NCBI GenBank assembly: GCA_963737265.1
Contig: CAVTRY010000012.1
Span: forward strand, 224,001-288,000
Direction: 5' to 3'
DNA: 64,000 nt
Origin: an uncultured delta proteobacterium
GTDB lineage: Bacteria > Myxococcota_A > Polyangia > Fen-1088
The notes beneath the pieces are model-generated. The model saw only the letters and a list, made by a program, of their open reading frames with translations. It was not told the origin of the DNA and did not search any database. This document shows, piece after piece, positions 26,074 through 52,858 of this stretch; the stretch's first letter is position 1; the number at the start of each line of letters is the position of its first letter. The position numbers and the translations under genes are program-made.

Positions 26074-26171
26074 CTAAAGCCGCACAAGACTTGCAACCTC
26101 GATGTTCCAGCACGAGCTTGTATCGTAGATGACCTCCAGCCCGTTCGCGTTGGCGAGACCGAAAGATATTG
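26074..26171 (-). pseudogene. Orphan C-terminal fragment of the 888-aa metallophosphoesterase
   Basis: Reads SFGLANANGLEVIYDTSSCWNIEVA versus FGSAGGLEDIYDASSCWNIEVE in 30618-33284. Confidence 0.8.
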
Positions 26172-27121
26172 TCAGTAGGCAATCAGCAGCCAGTCGCCTT
26201 CGCTGCTCTGGCCGATGGCGAAGCGGGGGCGTTTGAACTTCGTTCGCTGCAGTTGGAGAAGAATTTCTCTTATCTCTACCTTGTTTTCGGCAATGATGTT
26301 TCCGTGTTCCGTAACGCTCGAAAATTTCCTGCAGCTGTTGTCGTGAAAGAGCACTTGCGATGCCCAAGTAGGAGCTACGACCTCGCCTCCAAAGTCTGCC
26401 AATTTGCGCTTCCAGACTGTCTCCAACCCACGATTTGTTCGGAAGAGAACCGTGTCATCTCTTTCATCGCTGATTTTCCAAAAGAGGAAATCACTGCCCC
26501 GAGAGGCGAACGGCAGACTTGCAGGTGCCCGTTCCGTTTCGTACCTGGTGCGGACCAACCCCCAATCTGCAGGGCCACCGGATTGCGGGCTACCACCTAG
26601 GGTCCAGAACCATTCCCGCTTCTTCTTCATCCATGAAAGCGCCTTTTGCACTACGACGGCTCCCCGTGTGTCGAGAACAGTTGCTGTCGACGGCCAGACC
26701 TCGTCGAACAGGCCAGGTACATTGCCATAGGGGTAGATCTCCTTGAAGGCCTCGATGAGGAGTAGATCCCCCGCTTCGGAGGCTATCGCTCCAGTCTGAT
26801 CGAGCTGGAGCCCGCACGAACACGGTTGTTTAGCGTCTCCTGCCGAATCGGGGCAGCGCGGTTTGTCGATAGCGGCCAAGGGGCGCGACTTTTCCACCGA
26901 CTCGCGGCCATCAAGATCGAAATAGGAAACGACCTTATCGCTCACCACCCACAGCCCGGTGGGACTTGACCGATAGAGCGTAGTCTTCGTGGCCTGAACG
27001 ACGAATGACCGAGCCCGGCCCTTGTGCAGAGTCCCGGTATCGATTTCGACGACCTCGCTGGCACTCGCTACGACGAAGCGGTTGCCAAAGACCTGCCCGG
27101 TCTTGACCTCGCCGACGATGT

Positions 27122-27310
27122 CAGGGCCATCGCATCATCCTACATCGACGCAGGATCCATCAGAGTCTCGGCCATTTCTGGAAGGTTTTCCCCTGGGGTC
27201 GGTGCGCGCGCCGGTGTGCAGGCAGGTTCGGCAGCGCGCACGGGCGCGGAGACCGGCATAACTATCGGCATCTCCGCAAGATCACTTACAATTTAGATGC
27301 GTTGGCCCTG
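27122..27310. mobile_element. 189-bp non-autonomous MITE with ISAs1-type ends
   Basis: Ends CAGGGCCATCGCATC...GATGCGTTGGCCCTG; perfect 10-bp TSD CCGACGATGT (27112-27121, 27311-27320). Confidence 0.9.
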
Positions 27311-27597
27311 CCGACGATGTCGAGAGGGCTTCGTCCCAGCTCGTGCCCCTCTCTGTCCCAAAGCATGAGAGCGAGGGCATCCGTTTCCAGGTTCTTCACA
27401 ATGGCCAGGATCTTGCCCCCGGGCAAGGGATAGACCGGCGGTATGAACTCGCCTTGCACCTGCCAGCTTGCCTGCCATCCCGTGAGCTGCAGTCGTTGGC
27501 TCAGACCACGCACCGTCACACGGTTTTCTTCAGCACGAACATTGTACGTCATGATGAGTCCAGCAAATACGAGTCCAGCGAATACGAGGATCGCACA

Positions 27598-28885
27598 CAG
27601 GGTCATCGCATCTAAATCCCGAACGATCTTCGTGGTATAGCCGGCGCACCAGAGAGGAACGTTTTTTGATTGAAGGGCGATATCGTGGCTTGTTCGTAAG
27701 TCATGAAGCGAACAACCGTGGCGGAACGAGAAAAGGAAGAGCTGGCGGCATCGATCCTGGAGTACTTCGCGTCGGTGCCGGATCCGCGGGTGGAGCGGAC
27801 GCGGCACCACGCGCTGACGGACATCCTGATGCTATCGTTGTGTGCCGTGGTCTGTGGTGCTGACTCCTTCTGTGCTATCGAGACCTATGGGCGGGCAAGA
27901 GAAGCCTGGTTACGAACGTTTATCGGTCTGCGCGGCGGGATTCCCACACACGACACCATCGGGAGGGTGTTTGCAGCCCTGAATCCAGATGCCCTGGCTG
28001 AGAGGTTCCGGCAGTGGATCTTGAGCGTGGCGCGACTCACGAAAGGCGAGGTCGTGGCCATCGACGGCAAGACGCTGCGACGATCCTTCCAAGAGGCCGG
28101 CAGCCACGCTTTCGTCCACATGGTTAGTGCCTGGGCCACCAACAACCACGTGGTTCTTGGGCAGGTCAAGACAGAGGAGAAATCCAACGAGATCACTGCC
28201 ATTCCGCGGTTGCTCAAGCTCCTGAAGATCAAGGGCTGTCTAGTAACTATCGATGCGATGGGCTGCCAGAAGCAGATCACCGCAGATATCCAGGACGCCG
28301 ACGCGGATTACCTGCTCGCGGTGAAGGAGAACCAACCCACGCTCAGCGCTGAAGTGACGACAATCTTCGCGCATTGTCGTCGCGACCCGACGGGATTGGA
28401 CGTGGATTTTCACGAGACACGCGATGTTGGGCACGGACGAACCGAGGTTCGCCGGTGCTGGACCACAAACATGGTCGAGAGCATCTCCCAGTACCAGGAA
28501 TGGACGGGTCTGAGCAGCTTGGTATTGATCGAGTCCGAGCGCACGGTCTCGGGGCACACTTCAACCGAGTGCCGCTACTACATCAGTTCGCGAAAGAACC
28601 TCCCAGCAGATGCCGCTCTCGACGCCGCTCGGAAGCACTGGGGAATCGAAAATGAATTGCACTGGGTTCTCGACGTCACTTTCCGTGAGGACGAATGCCG
28701 TGTTCGCGCCGGCAACGCCGCCCAGAACTTTGCAGTGATGCGCCACATCTCACTCAACCTCCTCAAATCAGTCAAAGACTGCAAGCTCAGCATCAGGCTT
28801 CGCCGAATGCGCGCGGCATGGGATCAGGACTTCATTCTGCAAGTCCTCATGGCCCAACCCGATGTGGGATGATGCGATGACCCTG
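27598..28885 (+). mobile_element. ISAs1 family insertion sequence, copy 1
   Basis: TIR CAGGGTCATCGCATC / GATGCGATGACCCTG; 10-bp TSD GGATCGCACA. Confidence 0.96.
27703..28872 (+). CDS. ISAs1 family transposase
   Basis: VPDPR, AIDGKTLR, KSNEITAIP, TIDAMGCQ, HWGIENELHWVLDV. Confidence 0.96.
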   Translation: MKRTTVAEREKEELAASILEYFASVPDPRVERTRHHALTDILMLSLCAVVCGADSFCAIETYGRAREAWLRTFIGLRGGIPTHDTIGRVFAALNPDALAERFRQWILSVARLTKGEVVAIDGKTLRRSFQEAGSHAFVHMVSAWATNNHVVLGQVKTEEKSNEITAIPRLLKLLKIKGCLVTIDAMGCQKQITADIQDADADYLLAVKENQPTLSAEVTTIFAHCRRDPTGLDVDFHETRDVGHGRTEVRRCWTTNMVESISQYQEWTGLSSLVLIESERTVSGHTSTECRYYISSRKNLPADAALDAARKHWGIENELHWVLDVTFREDECRVRAGNAAQNFAVMRHISLNLLKSVKDCKLSIRLRRMRAAWDQDFILQVLMAQPDVG

Positions 28886-29082
28886 GGATCGCACATCGCA
28901 TGGCTACAGAGCCCTATCGGTAGGGGGCGAACTGGCGACGCCACGAAAAGTTCGGGGCTTCGTTATGGGCGTGGAGGAGACCATCTGTCGGCTCTCACGG
29001 TATATCTGAGTGCCTTCCCACTCGGATTCACCAGGGAGCGGCGCATCTCTCTCGCTCTGGCCCACCTATTCGCCAACCCATA

Positions 29083-29158: not shown

Positions 29159-29228
29159 GCACGATTGCCGAATGTGGGACGCGGGTGCCCGTCCGCCCTT
29201 GGGTGTCCGTGATAATCCACCCGGTGGA

Positions 29229-29397
29229 TCACGAAATAGCGTGATATCCAACACCAGCATTCTCACCATGGGGAATGATGTCGTATCTTTGCGATCCTCA
29301 GAAGTTCCAGAACGATGGCTTGGCCTCGACCCCAATGTTCCAGCGTGAGCTGAAGTCGTAGATGTCCTCCAGCCCATTCGCGTTGGCGAAACCGGCA
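29229..29397 (-). pseudogene. Orphan C-terminal fragment of the 888-aa metallophosphoesterase
   Basis: Reads GFANANGLEDIYDFSSRWNIGVEAKPSFWNF*GSQRYDIIPHGENAG, matching the C-terminus of 30618-33284 with a Trp-to-stop change. Confidence 0.88.
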
Positions 29398-30606
29398 TCA
29401 ATACGCAATCAGCAACCAATCTCCCTCGGCACCCTGGCCGATGGCGAAACGGGGACGCTTGCCTTGCGTGGCGTCCTGTTCTAGAAAAATCTCTCGGACA
29501 GGCACGGTTGCCTCGACCTTTTGCCCGCCGCGGTCAGAGATACTTGAGAATCTGTAGCTGGTATCGTGAAGAAGTATAGGCGATGTCCACGATGGCGAGA
29601 TGAAGATCTCACCCGCGAAATCCTGTAGGCTACGTTTCCAAAGCAGCTCGAATCTGCGATCTATGCGTTGAATAATCGTCTCATGTGAGCCCGAGGTGAA
29701 CAAAAAGTCGGTGCCGCGGGATGCGAAGAAACGGCCTGCGCCGATTCCGTCAGTCTCATATCGGGTTCGCACCAGTCCCCAGTCCACGGGGCCACCGGAT
29801 TGTGGACTACCCCCTTGGGTCCAAAACCACTCCCGCTTGGTCTTCATCCATGAGTAAGGCCTTTGTACGATGATGTTTCCGTGGGGATCGAGAATGGTCA
29901 CGACAGAAGGCCAAACCTGGTCTGGGAGTACGCCGGTTGTGCTGATGGGATGTCTTTCCAAATACACATCGAGAACGAGCATCTCTCCGGCATCGGACAC
30001 CAGCATCTTCGCTTCCTTCGGCTGGAAGCCTGCCGAGCAAGGCGCCTTGATGCTCGAGGGGTCACTGGAACACGCAGGTTTGTCCGAAACCGACACCAAC
30101 GGCCGATTCCTTGTCATAGGAGCGCGTCCGTCCAAGTCAAAGTAGGAGAGCGCTCGATCAGTGACCTCCCAAAGGCCGCTCGGTCCGGCGTAGTAGTTGG
30201 TCTTCTCGGAGGGAACAGGTAGCTGTCGCGTTCGGCCCGGGCGCAGGTTGTCGGTGTCGTACTCCACCACCTCGCCAGTCGAGGCAACGATCAGATGCCT
30301 TTCTAAAACGCGAGATGCCACCACATCACCCACGAGGGATAAGGGAGATCGTGCCAGCTCCTGACCTTCCTTGTTCCACAAGACGAGGTCCCTCGGCTCC
30401 TTCTCGAGCGTCTTGACGACGGCAAGAATTCTGCCACCCGGAAGCGCATGGATGGGCGGAAGGATCTCGCCCGTGGCCGGCCACGAGGCCTGCCGGCCGG
30501 TGAGCTGCAACCGTTGGTTTAGACTGCGGACTGTTACGAAGTCTTCTCCTGCGCGAACATTTCCGGCCATCATCAACCCTGCCAAAGTGAAAAGGAAGTA
30601 TTCCAT
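29398..30606 (-). CDS. Exported protein, putative immunity protein (402 aa)
   Basis: Signal peptide MEYFLFTLAGLMMAGNVRA; starts 12 bp after the phosphoesterase stop; has a paralog downstream. Confidence 0.7.
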   Translation of the reverse strand: MEYFLFTLAGLMMAGNVRAGEDFVTVRSLNQRLQLTGRQASWPATGEILPPIHALPGGRILAVVKTLEKEPRDLVLWNKEGQELARSPLSLVGDVVASRVLERHLIVASTGEVVEYDTDNLRPGRTRQLPVPSEKTNYYAGPSGLWEVTDRALSYFDLDGRAPMTRNRPLVSVSDKPACSSDPSSIKAPCSAGFQPKEAKMLVSDAGEMLVLDVYLERHPISTTGVLPDQVWPSVVTILDPHGNIIVQRPYSWMKTKREWFWTQGGSPQSGGPVDWGLVRTRYETDGIGAGRFFASRGTDFLFTSGSHETIIQRIDRRFELLWKRSLQDFAGEIFISPSWTSPILLHDTSYRFSSISDRGGQKVEATVPVREIFLEQDATQGKRPRFAIGQGAEGDWLLIAY

Positions 30607-30617
30607 AGCACCAGAAT

Positions 30618-33284
30618 CTACTTGTAATTGGGGAACTGACGGCGCCAGGTGAAGTTGGGGGCCTCGTTGTGCGTGTGGAGGAGGCCGGTGTTTTCGCCGT
30701 GAGGAATGATGTCGTACTTCTGCGAGCCCCAGAAGTTCCCGAACGAAGGCTTGGCCTCGACTTCGATGTTCCAGCACGAGCTTGCATCGTAAATGTCCTC
30801 CAGCCCCCCCGCACTGCCGAAGCGGAAAGACATGAATCTGCCGGCTTTGGAACCAAATTGGAGCCAGGCCATAAACTCTCCGCTCTGTTCTATGAGCACG
30901 TCGAAAACATTCTGAGCAGGCACGATCGTCTTTGGGTCGGGGTTACTTTTCGGTTTGAAGCGGCCCGACTGCTGCGCAAGTGGAATCTTGACCCAAGGGT
31001 TCCCATCGTTGGCCGTTGCCTTTCCAAAGAGAACCACATCCATGTTCATCGCCAGTACGTCCGGGAAGTTCTCGTGGAAGGTGATCGTAATCGAGTGCCT
31101 TACATCGCCAGCGGTCGCCCGCTCGAAAGGCTCGACGGCAATCTCCTTGAACACCTGGTTCTTCATCACGTGCAGGTAATCCACCGCGACGGCCAACCTG
31201 GGCTTGGTTTGGTCGAGCGTGGAGTACACGGGCTCGATGCTGGTCACATTACCGCTGTCCGAGATGGTCACCATTGTGCCCGAGGGGCGGTCGCTGCCAT
31301 ATTCGCCGAACGTGGCGCCACCGCCATAGAACCCGTCGAAGTTGATGCGCGGGAGCGGACCCGCGGAATCCGACACGATGATAGGTGGGCGGCCATTGAT
31401 ACGAGGCGCTGGATTGACGACCCCGCTCGGACTCCGCATGCCGTAGGCCTCGGTTGGATAGCCTTTGTCGTCAGCCGCTCCAAGCAGGTACATACTCTTG
31501 CGGTGCGAGTGGCCGGAAAACCCGCATGCCGTGACTTTGCCGTCGGCCATCTGCTTGTACAGTTCGGATCGCCGCTTTTCGAAGGTGCCGAAGTCGTATT
31601 TGCCAAAGGGGGCTCCGCCGCGAAGGAGCCCAGTGCCACCGACATCCACGTGGCCCAGGGTCGGACCCTCGCCATAGGAAACACTCTCGACGTAGCTCAC
31701 GAAGGTGAAGTGGCTCATGAGTACGGTCTTCTTGCCCGCGGTTGCATCGGGCTTGGCTAGCGCGAGCTGCGCAGCGGTGACCGCCTCGTTGGCGCGCGGA
31801 AGGTGTCCCAACAGACCACCCTGGCCGAGCGACCCAGGCAGGCTCACCGATTCTTCGCTTTCGCCCCAGCCCAAGCCGGCGAGAAGAATCTTGGGCAGCT
31901 GCAGGTTGAAATCCAAGAAGGGGGTCAGGACGGCATAGAACCACTCGTAGTATTGCGGATCGAAGAGCTCCCCCAAGGCAACGCTGTCCCAAGATTCGCC
32001 GAAGGCCAGCATGGCCTCGTAAAAGGTCAGGTTGTGGTCGGCCGGGATGCCTTCGTTGGCCTTCTTCAAACCCAGAAGAAGCCTTGGCGAGATGCCGTAG
32101 ATGTGGTTCTTCTTGTAGCAATCGTGGTTTCCCGTCACCGCGAACGCCGGTTTGCCTTTGCTCGCGCAGAAGTTCCGGATCGCCGTGAAGAAGGCGATGT
32201 AGTCGACGTAGGATTGGTAGTTGCGTTTGTAGTTGTTGTCGACGTCGACCAGATCCCAGATGGCGGCGGCGCTTGGAGAGCGCAGCTTTTCCGCGCCGAC
32301 GCCGTTGTGATAGGGGAAGGCATTGTCGACGTGCTCGATAAGGTCGCCGCCGACGAGCAGCACGTCGATGCCCTTGTTGTCGAGGGCATCGAGGATCGAC
32401 AGAAATGAACGCTCGAAGGTGTTCATCATCGAGCCGATAACTGGCGATTCCGCGGTTCCGGATTCGGCATCGATCACGCGGGCGGGGCTTTTGGCCAAGA
32501 GCTTCTGCCGGGCGTTGATGTGGATATCGGTGACATGCCCGAGGTTGAGCATCTGCAAGGATCCTGCCGCGTACACATAGAGCGGGTGATAGGCCACGAT
32601 GCGCTGGTCGAGGTCGACCCGCGAGTAATCCACACCCTCGCCGTCGAGCTCGAATTCGTGCGTGCCGAAGCCGCCGCTGCCTTGCAGGGCCGGGCCGTTC
32701 AGGCGCTTAAAAACCTTGCGTATCTGGAGGTCCTGATATTCGGAATTCCCTGAACCGTCGTCCGCGCCAGGGCTGCCCGCTCCCTGCGAAGCTGCCGCCA
32801 GGCAAGACTCGTGTACCTGGATGGCGTAGAAACCGTCCAGCTCCTTGGGCAGCCAGTTGGAAACCGTGTCGTGCAGGACGCCACGAAAGATCCCCTTGGT
32901 CTTGAGCTGGCCGACTGCATCGCGCTCCACCGGCTCGACCGCGATCTTGCCCGTGGGATCGTCGAACAAATCGTCGTCCGTCACGCGTTTCTTGGCATCG
33001 AGGCCGGGCGCGAATTTGAGGTGGCGGTTTACGTCGTCGATGGCGAGGGCGGGCGACTTGGGCGCGGCCACCAGGAGCTCGATCATGCCCTTGTTCTCGC
33101 CGCGCACGTGCAGGTTGGGCGTCAGCAGCGAGGGAAACAGCACCACCGCCGGAATGTTCGGCCGCGTGTCGATGGTGTTGAGGTGCTCGGGGGCGACCTG
33201 GAATTTGCCCTGCGACGGATCGGGTCGCGACACGAACGAGAAGGCTCGCCACACCAGGTTGTAGATATCGGGTTTACTGGCCAT
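30618..33284 (-). CDS. Large calcineurin-like metallophosphoesterase, putative secreted effector (888 aa)
   Basis: TDIH, GGDLIE, GNHD, SH and GHSH motifs; no signal peptide. The effector role is inferred from context. Confidence 0.8.
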   Translation of the reverse strand: MASKPDIYNLVWRAFSFVSRPDPSQGKFQVAPEHLNTIDTRPNIPAVVLFPSLLTPNLHVRGENKGMIELLVAAPKSPALAIDDVNRHLKFAPGLDAKKRVTDDDLFDDPTGKIAVEPVERDAVGQLKTKGIFRGVLHDTVSNWLPKELDGFYAIQVHESCLAAASQGAGSPGADDGSGNSEYQDLQIRKVFKRLNGPALQGSGGFGTHEFELDGEGVDYSRVDLDQRIVAYHPLYVYAAGSLQMLNLGHVTDIHINARQKLLAKSPARVIDAESGTAESPVIGSMMNTFERSFLSILDALDNKGIDVLLVGGDLIEHVDNAFPYHNGVGAEKLRSPSAAAIWDLVDVDNNYKRNYQSYVDYIAFFTAIRNFCASKGKPAFAVTGNHDCYKKNHIYGISPRLLLGLKKANEGIPADHNLTFYEAMLAFGESWDSVALGELFDPQYYEWFYAVLTPFLDFNLQLPKILLAGLGWGESEESVSLPGSLGQGGLLGHLPRANEAVTAAQLALAKPDATAGKKTVLMSHFTFVSYVESVSYGEGPTLGHVDVGGTGLLRGGAPFGKYDFGTFEKRRSELYKQMADGKVTACGFSGHSHRKSMYLLGAADDKGYPTEAYGMRSPSGVVNPAPRINGRPPIIVSDSAGPLPRINFDGFYGGGATFGEYGSDRPSGTMVTISDSGNVTSIEPVYSTLDQTKPRLAVAVDYLHVMKNQVFKEIAVEPFERATAGDVRHSITITFHENFPDVLAMNMDVVLFGKATANDGNPWVKIPLAQQSGRFKPKSNPDPKTIVPAQNVFDVLIEQSGEFMAWLQFGSKAGRFMSFRFGSAGGLEDIYDASSCWNIEVEAKPSFGNFWGSQKYDIIPHGENTGLLHTHNEAPNFTWRRQFPNYK

Positions 33285-33293: not shown

Positions 33294-33464
33294 CTAGCGG
33301 GTGGGGAAGCGGGCGCCCGGGCCATAGCTTAGCCCATCGGCTCGCACGACAAGGTCAGGGGCATAAGAAACTCGTCTGGCTTCGGCCAAGAAGACCGGGT
33401 CGATTAGCAGCCGCTGCTCTTCGTCGGTGAGGGGTGGTCGGGCGGAGGGATTGGGGGGCGCCAT
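33294..33464 (-). CDS. Small hypothetical protein (56 aa), absent from the ORF track
   Basis: AGGAGA SD, then MAPPNPSARPPLTDEEQRLLIDPVFLAEARRVSYAPDLVVRADGLSYGPGARFPTR*, filling the gap within the operon. Confidence 0.55.
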   Translation of the reverse strand: MAPPNPSARPPLTDEEQRLLIDPVFLAEARRVSYAPDLVVRADGLSYGPGARFPTR

Positions 33465-33497: not shown

Positions 33498-34396
33498 TTA
33501 CCTGCCGTGGGCCGCGTGGAGTGCGGCGAGGAAGTCGTCATCGACCACGTCTTGGTCATCCAGCAGCTTGACCCAGCGGAAATGCGCGATGGCGGTGTGG
33601 GTGGCATCGTCGGCGTTTCCGTCGATCGGGCCCGTGTAGAAGCCGAGGTTCTGCAGGCGAGCTTGGATTCCCGCGGTGGTGTCGGACGGATCCAGTCCGC
33701 CCACGGCGAAATCGTAGGCAGCAAAGGGCTGGTCGGCGTCGCTGCCCGCGCGCGAAAGCTCGACGTGGACCTTGCTGGTATCGGGTGGCAAGTCGATTTC
33801 CAGTTTTCCGGTCGAAGGTAGCGTGCCTTCCACGGCGCCACCGGTGTCAGGGGTTGCCTTGAAGGTGACCGGGTTCTCCTCGCTGCACTTGACTCCGGCG
33901 AAGCGCACGCGCAGCACCTCGGACGCGCCCTGCACGACGTATTCAGCCGCGCCACCCGGGACCTCCGCCTCGCGCGCGAGCTTGCTCGGGATGGCGACCT
34001 TGTCGCCCGGCAAGAGGATGTGGGCGGTTCCGCGCAACTTGCGCAGGTCTTCGTTCTTCGCAAAATCCCAAATGGTTTGCCAACGAATGAAGCCATGCGC
34101 CCGAGCGATCGTGGGCAACCGGTCGCCTTGCTCGACCGTGTACTGCGACGCCTCGCTACGCTCGTCCTCGGCCAGATCGAGCGCGCCATCCCCGTCCCAG
34201 TCGGCGCCATCGAGGTCGGGGAAGGTCACCGTGAAGACGCCCGGTGAAGAGCTCGTCGCCCGAACAGCGCGTGGAGGGGACTGAGAGCCTCGTATTCACC
34301 CTCGCGACACAGCCGACTGGCATCGAGCCTGCCGACCAAGATGACCTTGTTCTCGATTTGCCAAAAAGGCGAGATGCCAAGCGAGGGGCCAAACAT
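33498..34396 (-). pseudogene. LysM + peptidoglycan-binding-domain protein whose shared N-terminal module is out of frame (deletion near 34263)
   Basis: YTVEQGD..TIA..G..WQTIW..LLPGDKVAIP (LysM) and GIQARLQNLGFYTGPIDG (PG-binding) in 33498-34229. The upstream ATG at 34396 encodes MFGPSLGISPFWQIENK, as in 41860. The 243-aa part could still be translated from the GTG. Confidence 0.78.
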
Positions 34397-34638
34397 GTGT
34401 GTCCTTTCACCTGCGCCGTCCGAGGTGTCTGCCCGGATAGCCAATGTTTCTAAACCACTAGGGCGCCTTGTGGATATTCATTTTAGACGCCATCTTCGTT
34501 CACCTGGATGATACGCTCGGGTACCCGAGTCCCCTCGTTTACTACTCGCGGGATGACGCGCAATCGATCGCAGTTTCGCTGCGACTCAATACCTTGGCCT
34601 GTACACCTGCACCGCCTTGTTCGGCATCATCCCGCGTC

Positions 34639-34667
34639 TTGACGTCAGAACGTTATGACGTCACAAT
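34639..34667 (+). promoter_or_regulatory. sigma70-type promoter with overlapping antitoxin operator
   Basis: TTGACG-17bp-CACAAT with two TGACGTCA palindromes (34640-34647, 34656-34663). Confidence 0.7.
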
Positions 34668-34674
34668 GTTTACC

Positions 34675-34905
34675 ATGGCACAGGCAAAGAGAGCCACCGT
34701 TCACTTGGAGCCGACACTACACCGCGCCCTTCGCGTCAAGGCCGCGGAGACGGATTTGTCGGTGTCTGAACTTGTGAACAACGCCGTTCGCGCAGGACTA
34801 GCTGAGGACGCCGAGGATCTGGAGGCGTTCCGAGCCCGGGCGAAGGAGCCCACGTCGTCCTTTGAGAAACTCGTCAGCGATCTGAAGCGACGTGGAAAGC
34901 CATAG
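34675..34905 (+). CDS. CopG/ribbon-helix-helix antitoxin
   Basis: KRATVHLEPTLHRALRVKAA...SVSELVN; overlaps the toxin. Confidence 0.82.
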   Translation: MAQAKRATVHLEPTLHRALRVKAAETDLSVSELVNNAVRAGLAEDAEDLEAFRARAKEPTSSFEKLVSDLKRRGKP

Positions 34906-35149
34906 ACTCGAAGTCAAGCCTTCGGCTGCCAGGGAGATCGGAGATCTGCGGAAGGCCGACTGCCAGCGTGTTGTCGCGAAGATTCAACTGCTCGCGAGCA
35001 ACCCACGACCCAAGGGCTGCGAGAGACTGAGCGGCGCGGAGAAGTACCGCATTCGCCAAGGGGACTACCGCATTCTCTACGAAATCGACGACTCGATGAA
35101 ATTGGTGACCATAGTGAAGGTCGGCAACCGGCGAGAAGTCTACCGCTGA
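34892..35149 (+). CDS. RelE/ParE family toxin
   Basis: LASNPRPKGCERL..YRIRQGDYRILYEIDD..VGNRREVYR. Confidence 0.92.
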   Translation: MESHRLEVKPSAAREIGDLRKADCQRVVAKIQLLASNPRPKGCERLSGAEKYRIRQGDYRILYEIDDSMKLVTIVKVGNRREVYR

Positions 35150-39286: not shown

Positions 39287-39350
39287 CAGGGTTTCGATGC
39301 GGACCTACGTACCAGAGCGGACCCTGGAACGCAAGCTCTTTTCTCGCCGA

Positions 39351-39713: not shown

Positions 39714-39715
39714 TC

Positions 39716-40231: not shown

Positions 40232-40336
40232 GGTACCCGGCCTCCCACCATCGAGTCATACACGCTTACCGGAAGGACACGAGCTGCTGCGCGAAGGGCG
40301 TCGCATGGGTGGGTCGAAGGAGCCGCCGAAGGGGCT

Positions 40337-40759: not shown

Positions 40760-40773
40760 GGCAGACTGGGAAT

Positions 40774-44184: not shown

Positions 44185-45053
44185 CGAGGCGCCGCGGTAT
44201 CTTCCTGGTTGCCTGGGTCGTTGGGGGATGGCTGGCGGCACTGGTCGCGGTGCCGCATCTGCGCTGGTGGATCGAGGAGCACAACCATCGCACGACAGGA
44301 CCGTCGTACGGGCTGGCCAACGACGCGGCGGCGTCCCTCGCGGCGGCTCTCGATCAACCAGCGCGCGTTGCCGAGCTGGTGGCAGTTCCGGAATCCGAGC
44401 CCACGCCCGCGACCTCGTGCGAGCTCACCTGGACCGATCGAGAAAAGACCTATGTCTACGCGCAGCGGGCCTCGCGGGCAGCGCCCGAGACCGCGTGGCG
44501 GGCGGTCACGGTCGCCGGCAAGGCGATCCTCGGCCGCTATGTCGCGGACTTGTGGGCGGGCGACTGCAGGGAGAAGGGCTCCGACTACAAAAGGGACTGC
44601 ACCGTGGTGGAGCGCGCGCGACTGGTCGAGCGGCGGGAGATCCCCGTGGCACCTTCACCCGACAGGGCGACACCGCTGCTGCCCGGTGAGTGCACGCTCG
44701 GAACCTTCGCGGGCAAGCCAGGCGTCGTCGGCCGGTACAAGGTGACCCTGCCCGCGGAGCGCGAGATCACGGTGCGCGCATTCGTGATCCCGGCCACCGC
44801 GTTCCTGGCGTACCGGCTGTCGCTGCGCGGACAGGATGCCCCACACGTCGACAAGGAGAGCACCATGTTTCGCTCGCTCGGCCAGGGCGAATACGACCTG
44901 GAGGTCACCCTGCTACCCGCAGTCGGCGCCGCCGACCTGCCCGGCGAGTACAGCCTGCAAGTCCACTGGGGCCGCGCTGTCGGCCCTCGCTGTCCCATTC
45001 CGAGCTTCGACGAGAGCAACTGCTACGACGTTCCGGGCGGGAAGCAGCCATGA
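44181..45053 (+). CDS. Membrane-anchored Cys-containing protein A1, putative immunity
   Basis: ATGA overlap with the upstream gene; N-terminal TM helix; paralogous to 45050-45931. Confidence 0.72.
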   Translation: MTRRRGIFLVAWVVGGWLAALVAVPHLRWWIEEHNHRTTGPSYGLANDAAASLAAALDQPARVAELVAVPESEPTPATSCELTWTDREKTYVYAQRASRAAPETAWRAVTVAGKAILGRYVADLWAGDCREKGSDYKRDCTVVERARLVERREIPVAPSPDRATPLLPGECTLGTFAGKPGVVGRYKVTLPAEREITVRAFVIPATAFLAYRLSLRGQDAPHVDKESTMFRSLGQGEYDLEVTLLPAVGAADLPGEYSLQVHWGRAVGPRCPIPSFDESNCYDVPGGKQP

Positions 45054-45931
45054 AGGCTAACGGATCGCCCATCGAACACCTCGCGCGGGCTGTCGGAGCC
45101 GTGGGCTGGGCGTGGGCGACGATCCTGCTCCTGGGGACGGTGCTGACCCTGGAACGCGACCGTGGGGCGCCGTATCCGGCGGGCCAGTTGGGAGAGGCGT
45201 TTGCGAGCACAAAGCCAGTGGACCGTGAGATTTTCGGTCCATCGGGGACGCGTCTCCTAGGGCACGGTACTTGTCGCGATATGTGGTTCGATGATGACGC
45301 TGTACTGATTCGCGGAATCGGACCCATGAACGGCTCGACGGCATCGGCCTGGCTGACCCTGACAGTTGGCTCCCAGGTCTTCGTTGGCAGAGTGACCGTG
45401 GACCTGTGGAACGGAGCCGGGGCAGGAACGGGTGGCCTGGAATCCTCGACAAACTATATCATCGCCACCAACCTTCGTTTTGTGGAGCGAGTTCCGCCAC
45501 CCCGCTCTGCCCCCCCCGGATGGCGGGTCATGCGTCCGGGCGAGTGCGTCCTCTGCAGCGCAGAGCCACTGGATGCTTCCGGAGTCATCGGAAGGTTCTT
45601 GATCGACCTGCCGGCAGAACGCTTCGTCAACATTGGACTGATGCCGGAAGCTGAAGGCGAGTACATACCAATGGACTGGAAGCTCACTTTCGATGGGCAG
45701 GATGTCCGAACGGTCCAAGAGGACGAGTACAAAGAAGGCCGATATCGGCCACAACGAGAAGGACGATACGGGCTTACGGTCCGTCGAACCGATGGACCAG
45801 ATGCCGGCCGGATACCCGGAAGACCATGGCAACACTACAGCGTCCAGGTGGATTGGGGTGCGGCGATAACAGGGTCGTGCGAGCCACCTCATGGCAATTC
45901 CGACTGTTTCATGGAGGTCCATCGTGAGTGA
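45050..45931 (+). CDS. Membrane-anchored Cys-containing protein B1, putative immunity
   Basis: ATGA overlap; TM helix; shares VDLW, PGEC.L, GR..LPAER and YS.QV.WG...C with A1. Confidence 0.72.
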   Translation: MKANGSPIEHLARAVGAVGWAWATILLLGTVLTLERDRGAPYPAGQLGEAFASTKPVDREIFGPSGTRLLGHGTCRDMWFDDDAVLIRGIGPMNGSTASAWLTLTVGSQVFVGRVTVDLWNGAGAGTGGLESSTNYIIATNLRFVERVPPPRSAPPGWRVMRPGECVLCSAEPLDASGVIGRFLIDLPAERFVNIGLMPEAEGEYIPMDWKLTFDGQDVRTVQEDEYKEGRYRPQREGRYGLTVRRTDGPDAGRIPGRPWQHYSVQVDWGAAITGSCEPPHGNSDCFMEVHRE

Positions 45932-46297
45932 TTCACCGGGAAGATTTCGAGGCAAGGACGTGAAGGCGACAGGAGCACACCAGAAAGCAGATGCCAATGA
46001 GAAGCGCAATCACCCGCTGCCGGACTCGATCGAATACCAAGTTCGGCCCGAGATCGCCAAGACCCTGCGGGCTCCGTCCGCGCACAGCGTCGATCCTCAT
46101 GGCACTTCGACGCTCGTTCAGAAAGAAGTGGCCACCCTCATCTACATGGACGTAGGCCGCTGGAGCGGGAGTGCGCCGACGGAGCATGATACGCAGTCTC
46201 ATTGGGGCAAGCATCGCGACTTCGGAATCGTCTGCGGTCGCCTCGCCGTCCTCTGCACCTATACAGGCGATCCTTCGTCGGGGGGACCGGATGATCC

Positions 46298-47725
46298 CAT
46301 AGGCATTAACCCAAAAACTTGCGATTTCTCCAAGAACGCCCGCATATGCTCGGGATGGACAACATAGCGAAGGACAGCACCACGGGCGACTGGCCAATGA
46401 TTGCGGCGCAGCTTCCATCCGGATGGGAGGATCTGGCGGTCGAGATGGGCGTGGTCTACACGAAGTTTCCGGCGCACATGGGCACGAAGGTGACCGAGGC
46501 GGCACATTTGCTGCAGCCGATTCTGTACCAGGTGGCGACGAACTCGTCGCTGGCCGTGACGGTGGCGATGGCGGCGGCGGCCGGGGTGATCAAGATGTCG
46601 GCAGTCGGGCTGCACAAGCGAATGAGAACCATTGGTCCCTACCTGGCGCGACTGGTGACGCTGATGACGGATGCCGAGGCTTCGTTCGCAGCGGAGCGAT
46701 GGGCGGGCTACGACGTGGTGATCGTGGACGGCTCTTCGGTGTCGCGGCCAGGAGCCGAGGGCACCACGGCTCGCGTTCACTATGCGCTGCGCTTGAGCAC
46801 GTTGCGGCCTGTGCAAATCGAGGTCACGGATGACAAGGGCGGCGAGACGTTCAGAAACTTCGATGCCGAGGCGGGACAACTGTGGATGGGCGACCGCGGC
46901 TACTCGAACCCGCCTGGCATAGCGGCGATCATGGCGGCGGATGCCGACGTACTGGTCCGATACAACCGTGGCTCGCTTCCTCTGTACGGCATGAACGGGC
47001 AGCTACTCGACGTTCAGCGAATGCTGGCTCGCCTCAAGCATCCGGGGGTTGCACGCGAATGGTACGCAGAGGTCCATCCGCAGGGTGGCAAGGCGATCGC
47101 TGGCCGGCTGTGCGCGTTGCTCTTGCCGCCCGACAAAGCAGAGGAGGCTCGGCAGCGCGCGCGACGGGAACAAGGTCCGTCTGTGACTGAGGAAACCCTT
47201 GCGGCCGCGCAGTACGTGGTGGTGTTCACGACCGTACCGAGGTCGCGGCTGACCGCCGCCCTGGTCATGGAACTATACGGCCTCCGCTGGCAAATCGAGC
47301 TTCACATCAAGCGGGACAAATCCATCGCAGGGCTCAACCGACTGCCCAACTTTCGCAACGACACTGTCTATTCCTGGATTTGCGCCAAGATGCTGCTTAC
47401 CCAGATCGCCCGCAAACTTGCTACACCCAACGTGGCTATTCCCCCCTGTGGAGAACTCGACTGGTTCGGCATCCGACGAGCCGCAGAAAGGCGTCAGGGC
47501 CGGACTCAGGCGATCAAAGCACCGGGTCGTAGCCGAGCCATGGCGTCTCATGACCGTCCTCTGGCAAACCGTATGCGCGGCGCTCACGCCGATCAGCGCC
47601 AGTCGGTTTCCCGATTTCTTGCAGGCATTCCTTGACCACCTTCAACTCCAAGTCCCGCGCAAGCGTCTACGCAGCGCCGTTAAGTTCCAGCAACATCTTG
47701 CGGAGGAATTGGGTTAATGCCTATG
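46298..47725 (+). mobile_element. IS4 family insertion sequence
   Basis: Perfect 15-bp TIR CATAGGCATTAACCC / GGGTTAATGCCTATG; 11-bp TSD CCGGATGATCC / CTGGATGATCC. Confidence 0.92.
46346..47717 (+). CDS. IS4 family transposase (frameshift at a C-run near 47441-47446)
   Basis: IVDGS, GDRGY, Y..RWQIE..K (YREK) motifs; the C-terminus continues in ORF 47418-47717. Confidence 0.85.
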
Positions 47726-49263
47726 CTGGATGATCCTGTGCTCAAAGCCGTAGAAGACTCAATCAAATCCTCACCCGAATTCGAGAAGATCCTCCCCCTT
47801 CTCAACATCCTCTCCTCCGATCCCAAGCTTGGCTGGGTTCAGGTAACCAAGGCGGCGCTGGGCCGCAAGTTGAACAACGAGATCCCGAAGGAGGACAGGA
47901 TCTACGTGATTCTCGGGGATCTCCATGCCCCGGTCATGACCGACGGCAGGCGCACGTACTCGGACGAGCCCCAGCAGAGGTCGCTGGCCGACGCGATGGG
48001 CGTCCAATCAATTCCTGGCGGCTACGCCAGTGCCGCTCTTGCATCGGGGGTGCTCAAGCGCGGACCCCTGCACAGATGGCGCGGGCGCTACGATCCGGGC
48101 GTTCTGGCCAGCGAGGTCTTGCCTGACGTCGCCCGCGACTTGGGCGAGAGCGCGAAGGCGATCGTCGAGGCCAATCCCATCGCGCTCTATGCTGGGGAGA
48201 CCCTGGCCGTGGCGGAGGCTCCGGGGACCGCGACGGCGCTCATTACCGTGGGCGGCGCCGCCTCGGCGGTTCTGATCGAGCTTGCCGCCAAGACCCGCCT
48301 GCGCGAATGGCCCGACACGGAGGGTGGCCATGCCGAGAACGTCCGCGATTGGTTCGCCCGATACCACGGCACCCACGACAAGAAAGGCGCCGACATCTTC
48401 GAGGACGCGGGGACCGACTTGTTGCTCTGGCTCGCGCTGCTCAAGGACTACAACCAGGCAAAAGAGGGAAACAACCTGCCGGTGCGGCTGATGCAACTCG
48501 GGGATCTCTTCGATTTCTGGATCGGGCTCAAGTGCCCTTTCAGCCTGACCCACGGGTCCAGGAGCTTCCCGAACAAGAAAGCGGCCTTGGAGTTCGTGCA
48601 GTACTGGATGGACGAAACCCTGCGCTCTCCGTCCATTAACTACCTGTGGAACTTCGACAAGCACGCGGCGACCAGGCCCGACCTCAAGACCGTGTTTCTG
48701 TACGGAAACCACGACACGTACATGGGCAGCCTTCTTCCGGCAATCGTAAAAGAGCGTTTCGAAGACGATCCCGGTCTGGTCGCGCAGCACGGCCACCAGG
48801 AAGACACCTTCAACAAAGAGGAGAACGCGGCGAGGGGTTACCTGCTCACCCAGGCTGCCTTTTCCGACGACTACATTCGCGGCATCGAAGATCCCATGTC
48901 CGCCCTGGGTCCCACGCTCTTCGGCGGAAGCTGGACGCGCCTGGATCTGGCCGAGATGGCACTTCGGACCTGCGTCTTCGATAGGGTCAACCTAGGAAAG
49001 AAGCCGGCCATGACCTTCGTCATGGGCCACACCCACGAGCCGGTGCTGCAGGTGATCCATGTCGTCGCAGTCCACCAGGACGAGTCCCGAGCGACATCGA
49101 AGCCCCCAGGCGCGCCCACACCCATGTTGCAGGCCCCGTCCGCGGCCGAGTCCCAATCTCGAAATACGTCCACCAAGACTGGGTATAGGGGATAATTCCG
49201 CCGTGTAGGCGGATGTAGTTTACATGGTCTCTGTTCATCGGCGTTTTTTTCGAGCGAGGGAAA

Positions 49264-50154
49264 ATGGCGCTTGAAATGACTATCCACAGGCGCCGGGGCC
49301 TCTCCCTGGTTGCTTGGGTCGTTGGGGGATGGCTGGCGGCACTGGTCGCGGTGCCGCATCTGCGCTGGTGGATCGAGGAGCACAACCATCGCACGACAGG
49401 ACCGTCGTACGGGCTGGCCAACGACGCGGCGGCGTCCCTCGCGGCGGCTCTCGATCAACCAGCGCGCGTTGCCGAGCTGGTGGCAGTTCCGGAATCCGAG
49501 CCCACGCCCGCGACCTCGTGCGAGCTCACCTGGACCGATCGAGAAAAGACCTATGTCTACGCGCAGCGGGCCTCGCGGGCAGCGCCCGAGACCGCGTGGC
49601 GGGCGGTCACGGTCGCCGGCAAGGCGATCCTCGGCCGCTATGTCGCGGACTTGTGGGCGGGCGACTGCAGGGAGAAGGGCTCCGACTACAAAAGGGACTG
49701 CACCGTGGTGGAGCGCGCGCGACTGGTCGAGCGGCGGGAGATCCCCGTGGCACCTTCACCCGACAGGGCGACACCGCTGCTGCCCGGTGAGTGCACGCTC
49801 GGAACCTTCGCGGGCAAGCCAGGCATCGTCGGCCGGTACAAGGTGACCCTGCCCGCGGAGCGCGAGATCACGGTGCGCGCATTCGTGATCCCAGCCACCG
49901 CGTTCCTGGCGTACCGGCTGTCGCTGCGCGGACAGGATGCCCCACACGTCGACAAGGAGAGCACCATGTTTCGCTCGCTCGGCCAGGGCGAATACGACCT
50001 GGAGGTCACCCTGCTACCCGCAGTCGGCGCCGCCGACCTGCCCGGCGAATACAGCCTGCAAGTCCACTGGGGCCGCGCTGTCGGCCCTCGCTGTCCCATT
50101 CCGAGCTTCGACGAGAGCAACTGCTACGGCGTTCCGGGCGGGAAGCAGCCTTGA
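49264..50154 (+). CDS. Membrane-anchored protein A2 (near-identical copy of A1)
   Basis: Translation almost identical to 44181-45053; GAGGG SD. Confidence 0.78.
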   Translation: MALEMTIHRRRGLSLVAWVVGGWLAALVAVPHLRWWIEEHNHRTTGPSYGLANDAAASLAAALDQPARVAELVAVPESEPTPATSCELTWTDREKTYVYAQRASRAAPETAWRAVTVAGKAILGRYVADLWAGDCREKGSDYKRDCTVVERARLVERREIPVAPSPDRATPLLPGECTLGTFAGKPGIVGRYKVTLPAEREITVRAFVIPATAFLAYRLSLRGQDAPHVDKESTMFRSLGQGEYDLEVTLLPAVGAADLPGEYSLQVHWGRAVGPRCPIPSFDESNCYGVPGGKQP

Positions 50155-52851
50155 AGACTAACGGATCGCCCATCGAGCACCTCGCGCGGGCTGTCGGAGC
50201 CGTGGGCTGGGCGTGGGCGATGATCCTGCTCCTGGGGACGGTGCTGACCCTGGAACGCGACCGTGGGGCGCCGTATCCGGCGGGGGAGCCGCAAGACGCG
50301 TTTGAGCACATCCACCCAATCTACCGAGAGCTTCTCGGCCACGCGGAACCCGCCTTCAGGGACGAGGCACCTGCGATAAAGATGTGGTTCGATGACGATG
50401 GGGTGCGAATTCGCGGGACTCGGTCCGATGAACGGTTCCACTGCCCCAGTATGGATGACCCTGACAGTTGCCGGCCAGGTTTTTGTCGGCAAGAGTCACC
50501 GTGGACCTGTGGCGCGGAACCTCCCTGGGAACTGGTGGCCTGGATTCCACGCACAACTACACCGTTGGTGACAACCTTCGCTTCGTGGAGCGAGTGCCAC
50601 CGCCCCGCCCTGGCCCGCCAGGGTTGGCGGGTCATTCGGCCAGGCGAGTGCGTCCTCGGCAGCACGGAGCCACTGGATGCTTCCGGAGTCATCGGGCGGT
50701 TCTTGATCGACCTGCCGGCAGAACGATTCGTCAACATTGGATTGATGCCAGAAGCTGAAGGGGATTACATACCAATGGACTGGAAGCTCACTTTCGATGG
50801 GCAGGATGTCCGAACGGTCCAAGAGGACGAGTACAAAGAAGGCCGATATCGGCCAGAACGATCGGGACGATATGAGCTTACGGTCCGTCGAACCGACGGA
50901 CCAGACGCCGGCCAGATACCCGGAAGGCCATGGCAACACTACAGCGTCCAGGTGGACATGGGGTGCGTCGATAACAGGATCGTGTCAGCCGCCTCATAGC
51001 GATTCCAACTGTTTCATGGAGGTCCGACCATGAGTAACTCACCAGGCAAGTTCCGCAATCGTGACGTGAAGGGCGACAGGCGCGCACCAGAAAGCGGAGG
51101 AGAAAGATAAAGAGAATATTCCGCTGCCAGACTCAATCGAATATCAGGTTCCGCCTGAGGTGGCCAAGACCCTGCGGGCCCCGTCCGTACACAGCGTCGA
51201 TCCTCATGGCACTTCGACGCTCGTTCAGCAAGAAGTGGCCACCCTCATCTACATGGACGTAGGCCGCTGGAGCGGCAGCGCACCGACGAAGCATGATACT
51301 CAGTCTCATTGGGGCAGGCATCGCGACTTCGGAATCGTCTGCGGTCGCCTCGCCGTACTCTGCACCTACACACAAGAACGCTCCACGGAATGGAAAGGAT
51401 GAGCCCGTGATCGACCATGCCGTCGAAGACTCAATCAAATCCTCACCCGAATTCGAGAAGGTTCGTCCCCTTCTCAACATCCTCTCCTCCAATCCCAAGC
51501 TTGGCTGGGTTCAGGTAACCAAGGCGGCGCTGGGCCGCAAGTTGAACAACGAGATCCCGAAGGAGGACAGGATCTACGTGATTCTCGGGGATCTCCATGC
51601 CCCGGTCATGACCGACGGCAGGCGCACGTACTCGGACGAGCCCCAGCAGAGGTCGCTGGCCGACGCGATGGGCGTCCAATCAATTCCTGGCGGCTACGCC
51701 AGTGCCGCTCTTGCATCGGGGGTGCTCAAGCGCGGACCCCTGCACGGATGGCGCGGGCGCTACGATCCGGGCGTTCTGGCCAGCGAGGTCTTGCCTGACG
51801 TCGCCCGCGACTTGGGCGAGAGCGCGAAGGCGATCGTCGAGGCCAATCCCATCGCGCTCTATGCTGGGGAGACCCTGGCCGTGGCGGAGGCTCCGGGGAC
51901 CGCGACGGCGCTCATTACCGTGGGCGGCGCCGCCTCGGCGGTTCTGATCGAGCTTGCCGCCAAGACCCGCCTGCGCGAATGGCCCGACACGGAGGGTGGC
52001 CATGCCGAGAACGTCCGCGATTGGTTCGCCCGATACCACGGCACCCACGACAAGAAAGGCGCCGACATCTTCGAGGACGCGGGGACCGACTTGTTGCTCT
52101 GGCTCGCGCTGCTCAAGGACTACAACCAGGCAAAAGAGGGAAACAACCTGCCGGTGCGGCTGATGCAACTCGGGGATCTCTTCGATTTCTGGATCGGGCT
52201 CAAGTGCCCTTTCAGCCTGACCCACGGGTCCAGGAGCTTCCCGTACAAGAAAGCGGCCTTGGAGTTCGTGCAGTACTGGATGGACGAAACCCTGCGCTCT
52301 CCGTCCATTAACTACCTGTGGAACTTCGACAAGCACGCGGCGACCAGGCCCGACCTCAAGACCGTGTTTCTGTACGGAAACCACGATACGTACATGGGCA
52401 GCCTTCTTCCGGCAATCGTAAAAGAGCGTTTCGAAGACGATCCCGGTCTGGTCGCGCAGCACGGCCACCAGGAAGACACCTTCAACAAAGAGGAGAACGC
52501 GGCGAGGGGTTACCTGCTCACCCAGGCTGCCTTTTCCGACGACTACATTCGCGGCATCGAAGATCCCATGTCCGCCCTGGGTCCCACGCTCTTCGGCGGA
52601 AGCTGGACGCGCCTGGATCTGGCCGAGATGGCACTTCGGACCTGCGTCTTCGATAGGGTCAACCTAGGAAAGAAGCCGGCCATGACCTTCGTCATGGGCC
52701 ACACCCACGAGCCGGTGCTGCAGGTGATCCACGTCGTCGCAGTCCACCAGGACGAGTCCCGAGCGACATCGAAGCCCCCAGGCGCGCCCACACCCATGTT
52801 GCAGGCCCCGTCCGCGGCCGAGTCCCAATCTCGAAATACGTCCACCAAGAC
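49288..52851 (+). repeat. Tandem duplication unit 2
   Basis: Counterpart of 44187-49179; both copies end at TCCACCAAGAC. Confidence 0.92.
50151..51033 (+). pseudogene. Protein B2, divergent allele of B1 with apparent frameshifts
   Basis: Ends match B1, the centre (about 50285-50640) differs, and the reading frame shifts several times. Confidence 0.7.
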
Positions 52852-52858
52852 CCGCTGA
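51030..52858 (+). pseudogene. LpxH-like metallophosphoesterase copy 2, two apparent frameshifts in the 5' part
   Basis: ATG at 51030 (MSNSPGKFR); frame changes near 51072 and 51375; catalytic part nearly identical to copy 1; no IS4. Confidence 0.8.

Follow-up and report, generated by a model that had tools for sequence, protein, structure and literature searches.

We analysed a stretch of 64,000 nucleotides (hereafter the window; contig C12, positions 224001-288000) from the genome of a soil myxobacterium, whose assembly comprises 6.55 Mb in 25 contigs at a completeness of 99.5% and an estimated contamination of 7.6%. The window bears two gene clusters arranged back to back (head to head), the left on the minus strand and the right on the plus strand, and each combines a carrier gene with peptidoglycan-binding parts, a gene for a large metallophosphoesterase (MPE-L on the left, MPE-R on the right) and genes for candidate immunity proteins (Table 1). 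A first-pass annotation, made from the letters alone, had placed two divergent gene sets here, and its coordinates and gene list were found to be essentially correct. It had also proposed comparing the neighbourhoods of related enzymes in other genomes; in this comparison, a part of the relatives of both enzymes were found to adjoin VgrG, adaptors of type VI secretion (T6SS) or whole T6SS clusters.

Table 1. Genes, gene remnants and mobile elements in and around the two clusters (window coordinates; aa, amino acids; ORF, open reading frame; IS, insertion sequence).
Feature	Position	Strand	Basis
Second small orphan MPE-L C-terminus remnant (residues 818-844, 63% identical)	26089..26169	-	homology
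Second partner-L paralogue, in pieces	26172..27573	-	homology
IS with DDE_Tnp_1 transposase (27703-28872), inserted at the second partner gene's 5' end; many genomic copies	27598..28887	+	
Orphan MPE-L C-terminus remnant (residues 822-868, 77% identical)	29250..29390	-	homology
Partner L, 402-aa exported protein with signal-peptide-like N-terminus; candidate immunity protein	29398..30606	-	translation, homology
MPE-L, intact 888-aa metallophosphoesterase; variable region at about residues 700-850	30618..33284	-	Pfam, family alignment
56-aa ORF, in-frame internal-deletion remnant of a 368-aa pentapeptide-repeat protein	33294..33464	-	comparison with C23 orthologue
243-aa ORF, C-terminal part of left carrier (residues 278-531), LysM-like + PG_binding_1	33498..34229	-	Pfam, tblastn
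Left-carrier remnant, N-module residues 4-52, then frame lost and stop	34226..34444	-	tblastn with intact 531-aa C23 carrier
Inserted mobile DNA, 7.1 kb, between operon heads: ParE-like toxin, IS66 TnpC/TnpB, second copy of the DDE IS, DruA-like ORF	34424..41531	.	
Right carrier, 777 aa: N-module (1 to about 225), TTR-like beta-sandwich (about 240-305), OmpA-like + PG_binding_1	41851..44184	+	Pfam, structure
R1, 290 aa, single N-terminal membrane anchor; candidate immunity protein	44181..45053	+	translation, homology
R2, 293-aa paralogue of R1 (27% identical)	45050..45931	+	homology
MPE-R copy 1, 5' part (residues 1-126 of full-length family), IS-truncated	45924..46301	+	homology
IS4-like element, transposase 46319-47635, short flanking direct repeat	46296..47726	+	
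MPE-R copy 1, remainder (492-aa ORF), divergent metallophosphoesterase, closest solved fold LpxH	47717..49195	+	homology, structure
R1', intact copy of R1 (98% identical)	49264..50154	+	homology
R2', diverged copy of R2 (62% identical), no ATG, 3'-end frameshift	50151..50999	+	homology
MPE-R copy 2, two frame changes among codons 1 to ~125, 521-aa frame open from 51293	51028..52858	+	homology

The gene at the head of the left operon, annotated at first as a LysM/peptidoglycan-binding gene, is broken. The stretches for residues 4-52 (34396-34256) and 278-531 (34262-33501) of the carrier lie in different frames, and about 225 residues (~53-277) between them have been deleted. The PG_binding_1 domain of the remaining 243-aa ORF is above the Pfam cut-off (25.7 bits vs. 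23), while LysM stays below it (E 0.053, 13.9 bits vs. 20.9); in the fused relatives LysM exceeds the cut-off. The 56-aa ORF that follows, already listed in the first-pass annotation, consists of residues 1-31 of a pentapeptide-repeat protein fused in frame to residues 343-368, with no repeats kept, and the protein is intact only at a sister locus on contig C23 (Pentapeptide_4 match of 58.1 bits). Of the two paralogous exported proteins reported at the other end of this operon, partner L starts with a signal-peptide-like segment, and the second is a fragment adjoining an IS; its residues 6-100 are encoded at 27289-27573 (5' piece) and its residues 91-402, in a different frame, at 26175-27119 (3' piece).

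The head gene of the right operon is a single 777-aa ORF, and its description as an OmpA/peptidoglycan-binding gene was supported by two Pfam matches above cut-off, OmpA (35.7 bits vs. 27.2) and PG_binding_1 (27.9 bits vs. 23). The reported duplication of R1, R2 and MPE-R is equally clear: 44187-46265 aligns with 49288-51372 at 90.7%, and 47747-49179 with 51419-52851 at 99.3%. The first MPE-R copy is split by the IS4-like element, so that the residues after 126 are encoded at 47729-49177, and the MPE-R copy of another sister locus, on contig C11, bears a 1.4-kb insertion at the same site. R2' is probably a pseudogene. The translations also agree with the earlier description of exported or anchored partners and non-exported enzymes: R1 and R2 each have one hydrophobic anchor, and no signal was seen in the enzymes or the carriers.

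Both sister loci lie in the same assembly. The C23 locus is less damaged, with a carrier of 531 aa, a pentapeptide-repeat protein of 368 aa and an MPE-L of 876 aa, beyond which partner genes and C-terminal pieces of MPE-L form an array. The C11 locus shares both lesions of the window, namely the deletions in the left carrier and in the pentapeptide-repeat gene, and its operon heads are 74 bp apart vs. 7.1 kb in the window. Because the flanks differ among the three loci, they are not simply one place assembled three times. The loci of the window are decaying. On the left, deletions have struck the carrier and the pentapeptide-repeat gene; on the right, each MPE-R copy is cut at its 5' end, and the partner genes mostly survive. 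This decay, which has broken most of the delivery parts, had escaped the first-pass annotation.

The identification of the 888-aa product as a metallophosphoesterase was borne out by Pfam (Metallophos, PF00149; 23.5 bits vs. a cut-off of 21.5, E 8.6e-5), and the same family was recognised in most MPE-L relatives. In 31 aligned sequences the metal-binding motifs DxH, GD, GNH[DE], H and GHxH are invariant, at residues D253, H255, G313, D314, G385-N386-H387-D388, H525 and G591-H592-S593-H594; sequence and profile searches of the PDB with MPE-L returned nothing relevant. The relatives amount to 189 proteins at E <= 0.001 among 7,999 scored candidates. Judging by record titles, the 65 MPE-L loci found in species-representative genomes cover at least ten phylum-level groups, including Myxococcota, Acidobacteriota, Planctomycetota, Ignavibacteria, Latescibacterota, Gemmatimonadota, Verrucomicrobia, Gamma- and Betaproteobacteria and others. 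Loci with the MPE-L trio include L024, L025 and L053 of Enhygromyxa salina, a species that can be cultured. A profile search found MPE-L in 5 of the 300 other genomes sampled from the class (1 of 7 from the same genus), and a single-protein query in 0 of the 400 genomes of the phylum sample. These counts, together with the 179 matches to MPE-R at E <= 0.001 among 1.84 billion representatives, are in line with the initial view of the enzymes as conflict-type and not housekeeping proteins.

The three MPE-L paralogues of the genome share residues 1-200 at 100% identity, and divergence sets in beyond. The window and C23 enzymes remain about 100% identical up to residue 700 and then fall to 49-76%, and the C11 enzyme is about 55% identical from residue 250 onward. 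The orphan C-terminal pieces postulated earlier do exist: displaced pieces lie in the window and at one sister locus, and the paralogues are mosaic. All versions have the same architecture, with a C-terminal end motif kept across phyla, and on these alignments the variable part of MPE-L is best taken as a stretch that diverges within a common, conserved architecture and not as an exchanged toxin head. Two kinds of candidates were examined and rejected. A metagenome protein of 538 aa (P0037), in which MPE-L residues 182-483 (78% identical) are joined to a dCMP/MafB19-type deaminase domain, looked like a toxin-head swap but is probably a deletion or chimera, because the join falls halfway through the catalytic domain. 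Apparent fusions of the enzyme to its partner at two loci (L019, L015) proved to be long ORFs in another frame, the partner genes there being separate.

MPE-R had no Pfam match, no NCBIfam match of any family at E <= 0.01 and no relevant match in the PDB by single sequence or profile, and hhalign of its profile against that of MPE-L gave a probability of 14%. In 35 sequences G262-D263, N331-H332, H358-G359-H360 and H438/H440 are invariant, with D68/H70 nearly so. Among 48,161 chains, the best fold match of the AlphaFold model (mean confidence, pLDDT, 80.8) was LpxH (5b49_A, Z 8.3, root-mean-square deviation (rmsd) 3.8, 176 residues), followed by the Pol delta B subunit, SbcD, Mre11, Vps29 and YfcE; Foldseek placed LpxH at ranks 1-3 and 7, weakly (E 0.05-0.55). 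The "LpxH-like" label given earlier is therefore fair for the fold, as the motif set is kept as well, but not for the function. LpxH (PDB 5B49, 8QJZ) resembles MPE-R as its best structural match with a common metal-binding motif set, whereas the identity is only about 20%, MPE-R is twice as long and matches no LpxH model of NCBIfam, a large helical insert separates its first two motifs, its N-terminus bears a domain of 125 residues, and its genes lie in T6SS-type loci with a carrier or VgrG instead of lipid A operons. Full-length relatives have about 125 more N-terminal residues than the 492-aa window ORF, and congeners possess an intact operon of carrier, R1-like, R2-like and MPE-R genes with an enzyme of 705-723 aa. 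As separate observations, a Peptidase_S8 gene (L107:15433-16623) follows R1' in the C11 sister locus, and one database protein of 1754 aa (P0231) combines Peptidase_S8 with an MPE-R-like C-terminal domain.

To describe the neighbourhoods, we used our own profiles for VgrG (built from N-terminal seeds only), DUF4123, DUF1795 and core T6SS genes; all ORFs of the 65 MPE-L loci were clustered, and representative or seed ORFs were checked with Pfam. Within the fetched flanks, T6SS markers were present in 21 of these loci, and in 9 of the 30 with at least 5 kb on both sides. The seed ORFs confirmed by Pfam comprise VgrG, DUF4123, DcrB/DUF1795, PAAR, a Tle1-like lipase, TssE and TssF. The vgrG gene lies upstream of MPE-L on the same strand; in one locus (L068) a DUF4123 gene is placed between the two, and our profile also found DUF4123 in L069-L071. 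In four loci (L018, L020, L021, L045) MPE-L is encoded inside a complete T6SS cluster. VgrG also accompanies MPE-R in 7 of the 28 MPE-R loci, which are metagenomic. All five tested genomes that encode MPE-L with no local VgrG have TssC elsewhere. The genome of the window itself encodes two TssC loci and five Phage_GPD (VgrG) matches at four places, one being a split gene, all far from the MPE loci; no phage-type sheath was found in it.

The carriers provide a second link to this system. As first noted, they have a common N-terminal module, and the MFGPSLGISPFWQ module (hereafter the N-module) stands at both operon heads. Beyond it, residues 225-526 of the C23 carrier are 43-45% identical to the ends of VgrG proteins of 1085-1090 aa in four MPE-R loci (L079, L080, L083, L084). 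The best structural match of carrier residues 243-305 was the TTR domain of VgrG (6sjl_A, Z 5.6, rmsd 1.9, 57 residues), a weak match tied with other beta-sandwiches. Elsewhere the C-terminal part of the carrier occurs as a free small protein directly after vgrG or as the fused end of VgrG, and in L097 the gene order is VgrG, a free LysM-like/PG-binding protein and an MPE-R-like enzyme. In view of the homologous VgrG ends and of the L097 arrangement, the C-terminal part of the carrier is a VgrG tail extension, which can likewise be a free protein or be joined to the N-module. In 19 of the 28 loci MPE-R is preceded by a carrier-like or PG-binding gene.

Taken together, the results lead us to regard the two clusters as, probably, orphan T6SS cargo-effector loci that lack VgrG and have partly decayed. 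The homology of the carrier's C-terminal part to the VgrG extension assigns them to T6SS cargo delivery and not to a new kind of system. The contact-dependent phosphoesterase weapon of the first-pass annotation thus gains support from the comparative context, but no new delivery system is involved and T6SS is the best-identified route. In this reading, the carrier, which has no secretion signal, would hold the large phosphoesterase on the spike (MPE-L in the left cluster, MPE-R in the right one), leave the cell with it and, after firing, tether it to the wall of the target cell. In the periplasm of that cell the enzyme would hydrolyse an envelope molecule at a phosphodiester or pyrophosphate bond, perhaps in lipid-linked wall precursors or phospholipid head groups, and the exported partner L and the membrane-anchored R1 and R2 would act as protecting (immunity) proteins. 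The pentapeptide-repeat protein might act on MPE-L as a second inhibitor or as a loading factor.

Several observations weigh against this interpretation. No T6SS marker was seen in the fetched DNA of 44 of the 65 MPE-L and 21 of the 28 MPE-R loci, many of whose contigs are short, and neither the window (where the absence of vgrG, PAAR, hcp and Rhs had already been noted) nor either sister locus contains a T6SS gene. Given how common T6SS is in these phyla, the co-occurrence of TssC is weak evidence. For the N-module no relative with a known function could be detected, and the fold match of MPE-R, an enzyme recognised by neither Pfam nor PDB profiles, is barely above the level of meaningfulness. 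An export signal is missing from half of the pentapeptide-repeat proteins, among them every myxobacterial one, so that a simple periplasmic immunity role does not fit them, and the Enhygromyxa loci lack partner L altogether. Assembly errors could account for the frameshifts in MPE-R copy 2, a site that no contig from three soil sequencing runs covered, and in view of the estimated contamination a co-binned strain could be the source of some paralogues, though their flanks differ.

The protective role of partner L is suggested by its copy number and by the pattern of divergence. The protein is limited to this genome and four other myxobacterial loci. The genome holds seven copies for three MPE-L enzymes, and each orphan C-terminal piece of the enzyme is followed by one. 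Identity to the window copy is 71% for the partner behind the C23 orphan piece, 52% for the main C23 partner and 42% for that of C11, and in these three comparisons it tracks MPE-L residues 700-850 and not the catalytic domain. The only fold lead, a weak one, is beta-propeller-like (PQQ/BamB-like propeller clusters at 0.90-0.93 in the ESM Atlas), and when MPE-L (residues 430-888) and partner L (residues 26-402) were modelled as a complex, the scores were 0.11 and 0.00 against a mark of 0.32, which speaks neither for nor against binding. We infer from these sequence comparisons that partner L is an exported immunity protein particular to this lineage, with the variable C-terminal region of MPE-L as its target. 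On the right, an R-family gene (about 280-310 aa, N-terminal anchor) lies between the carrier or VgrG and MPE-R in 10 of the 28 loci, and the family profile matches R1 at 4e-11 and R2 at 1e-8; both are candidate membrane-anchored immunity proteins.

The most constant neighbour of MPE-L, overlooked at first, is the pentapeptide-repeat gene, which adjoins the enzyme in 49 of the 65 loci, as against just four other myxobacterial loci with partner L. This raises a serious rival assignment within the T6SS reading, in which the left roles are swapped: the pentapeptide-repeat protein would be the true MPE-L immunity protein, and partner L something else, such as a co-secreted accessory protein, a receptor-like propeller or a second effector. 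In Proteobacteria and Ignavibacteria this gene follows the effector, 25 of 50 of the proteins have a hydrophobic, lipoprotein- or signal-like N-terminus (11 with a lipobox-like motif), and in three loci (L056, L061, L069) the gene is in tandem; such export signals and tandem copies are the typical look of T6SS immunity genes, and the Enhygromyxa loci point the same way. However, none of the myxobacterial copies has a hydrophobic N-terminus or a lipobox-like motif, and our genome has a single intact pentapeptide-repeat gene for three full-length MPE-L enzymes, one of them only about 55% identical in the catalytic domain, whereas every MPE-L and every orphan C-terminal piece has kept its own partner L. 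Moreover, in the available part of one study, pentapeptide-repeat proteins are known as T6SS loading accessories (TvpB; PMC13373197). We consider the exchange of roles a possibility to be kept in mind, though the less likely one, and suppose that the pentapeptide-repeat protein is a second inhibitor or loading factor in addition to partner L.

The N-module is the least understood and most original piece of the locus. It matches no Pfam family, Foldseek with its model returned nothing at E <= 0.001, the ESM Atlas gave no usable match, and the rows that VIA-align listed for residues 127-219 were split-barrel-like and weak (Z about 5). The module was present in 9 of 9 genomes sampled from the genus (two to seven matches listed for each, the open frames measuring 281-886 residues) and in 11 of 71 genomes across the family. 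No other family of the class sample yielded it, a result to be read as a floor since a stricter first look was applied there. The longer N-module proteins (19 found) mostly have PG-binding ends. Two (P0135, P0136) have at their end an HExxH-type metallopeptidase-like motif in place of wall-binding domains, which hints that the N-module may be able to carry enzymatic heads directly. After an N-module/PG-binding carrier, a protein of about 700 aa with a Lys/Ala-rich head is encoded on C11 of this genome (L115:3020-5128) and in a congener (L157:10880-12952); the C11 copy had no Pfam match, and the protein is a candidate for a further cargo family.

Since N-module carriers occupy the exact position of VgrG in other lineages, one may ask whether the loci are conflict systems delivered here by something other than T6SS, with the N-module directing the proteins to outer-membrane exchange, vesicles or lysis-dependent release. 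No vgrG lies near 13 of the 15 fetched congener N-module loci or near any of the three loci of our genome, and the module matches no known T6SS adaptor family or fold. In the two remaining congener loci, however, the N-module is head to head with vgrG (two more loci are complete right-type operons, and the rest head operons of unassigned genes), and a distant N-module paralogue on the same contig as the window, 230 kb away, adjoins DcrB/DUF1795 and DUF4123 genes. The genome does encode T6SS, and the carriers have neither the signal peptide nor the lipobox that outer-membrane exchange toxins would need. Delivery by another route is therefore improbable in our judgement, and T6SS cargo delivery remains the preferred reading.

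Extended as far as it will go, the T6SS reading would make the N-module a portable spike-docking domain, a "VgrG-tail without VgrG", that loads varied cargo operons onto an unlinked VgrG. Both phosphoesterases would then be the first T6SS toxins to cut pyrophosphate- or phosphodiester-linked envelope lipids (of the lipid II/undecaprenyl-PP type, or phospholipids) while tethered to prey peptidoglycan by their carriers, and the pentapeptide-repeat lipoproteins would be a new immunity class. We offer this full combination as a speculation that is unlikely to hold in every part.

Mobile DNA is abundant around the clusters. The IS4-like element has nine further near-identical copies in the genome (10 in all). 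The DDE IS, together with about 475 bp that include a 5' partner-L fragment, is 100% identical at three places (window 27121-28887, C18:287720-289486 and C13:261923-263686), and the IS thus seems to have carried along a piece of an immunity-like gene. Within the IS66-rich insertion, a 288-aa ORF (38420-39286, minus strand) matches DruA of Druantia in Pfam (E 5e-26); no further Druantia gene is visible beside it, and PADLOC gave no match. The left operon is flanked by an ORF for a ParE-type toxin (34892-35149, plus strand, E 6e-10) and, on the other side, by a Phd/YefM-like antitoxin ORF (25383-25652, plus strand) with 27.2 bits, below the cut-off of 29.8. Further away, two paralogous secreted proteins with long Gly/Ser/Thr/Ala-rich linkers (53150-55177 and 56100-57770, both on the minus strand) end in near-identical C-terminal domains of about 380 residues, of which the genome holds more copies elsewhere, and three ORFs at 12740-16574 (minus strand) resemble nitrogenase nifH/D/K, the 290-aa ORF opening with a NifH-type P-loop, as judged from the translation.

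The wealth of IS and toxin-antitoxin genes in this stretch, the DruA-like ORF and a weak PADLOC match of the OmpA domain to ZorB of Zorya (E 2.9e-5) might suggest anti-phage defence or envelope maintenance, with wall-anchored sensors and phosphoesterase effectors acting in the producer. This is very improbable. Seven of the eight proteins had no PADLOC match, and that to ZorB is limited to a generic OmpA-like domain; neither the proximity of VgrG and T6SS adaptors nor a VgrG fusion would be expected of a defence system, and the sporadic, multi-copy distribution speaks against housekeeping. Having no export signal, the carriers and enzymes could not reach the producer's own wall.

If T6SS cargo delivery is the true reading, the widespread MPE-L and the rarer MPE-R add metallophosphoesterases to the classes of T6SS toxins. 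The carriers would represent a modular way of cargo attachment, in which the TTR-like/LysM-like/PG-binding unit is free, fused to VgrG or placed on a genus-specific N-module, and this modularity yields directly testable hypotheses on the matching of cargo and spike. Two candidates for new families of immunity proteins are the pentapeptide-repeat lipoproteins and the R proteins. For its part, the window is mainly a record of decay, in which the delivery parts of the effectors were lost and the protector genes retained.

Among known systems, evolved VgrGs such as VgrG-3 of V. cholerae have C-terminal extensions that bind or degrade peptidoglycan. The likeness lies in wall-binding domains on a spike, and four MPE-R loci do fuse VgrG to TTR-like, LysM-like and PG-binding parts; in contrast to evolved VgrGs, the wall-binding part has no recognisable hydrolase here, and the enzyme is separate and of a different class. 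Polymorphic toxin loci of the Rhs/CDI type, reportedly treated by Zhang et al. in 2012, are said to have arrays of orphan C-terminal pieces and immunity genes. Our loci resemble them in the identical 200 N-terminal residues with divergence downstream, in the displaced pieces with partners and in the excess of partners over toxins, but MPE-L diverges at about residues 700-850 within one conserved architecture instead of exchanging a toxin domain, and no Rhs, PAAR or CdiA repeats are present. There is also a parallel with T6SS cargo effectors that ride on VgrG via TTR domains or DUF4123/DUF1795 adaptors, such as Tle1 on VgrG1 of EAEC (6SJL), since the relatives of our enzymes are found in the order vgrG, adaptor, effector, partner. 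The effector here is a metallophosphoesterase and not a lipase, the extension has LysM-like or OmpA and PG_binding_1 parts, and in this genus a 225-residue N-module of no assigned family replaces VgrG.

The pentapeptide-repeat accessory proteins TvpB/TvpAB of Serratia, described in a different context (PMC13373197), are likewise encoded within a T6SS effector locus; as far as the available part of that source goes, our protein differs in having no DUF2169, DUF4150 or DUF3540 partner, in adjoining a metallophosphoesterase and in bearing export or lipoprotein signals in half of its family. In open-access papers and preprints, as far as their available text goes, no characterised metallophosphoesterase or metallophosphatase T6SS effector was found, the sole mention being a one-line prediction in a Neisseria survey, which lists a metallophosphatase among predicted effector domains downstream of vgrG (PMC12046857). 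The accessible part of that survey gives no family description, carrier or partner genes or experiment, so the likeness to the MPE families is by description only. What is new here is thus the class of effector and the architecture of the carrier, within a known kind of system, the T6SS.

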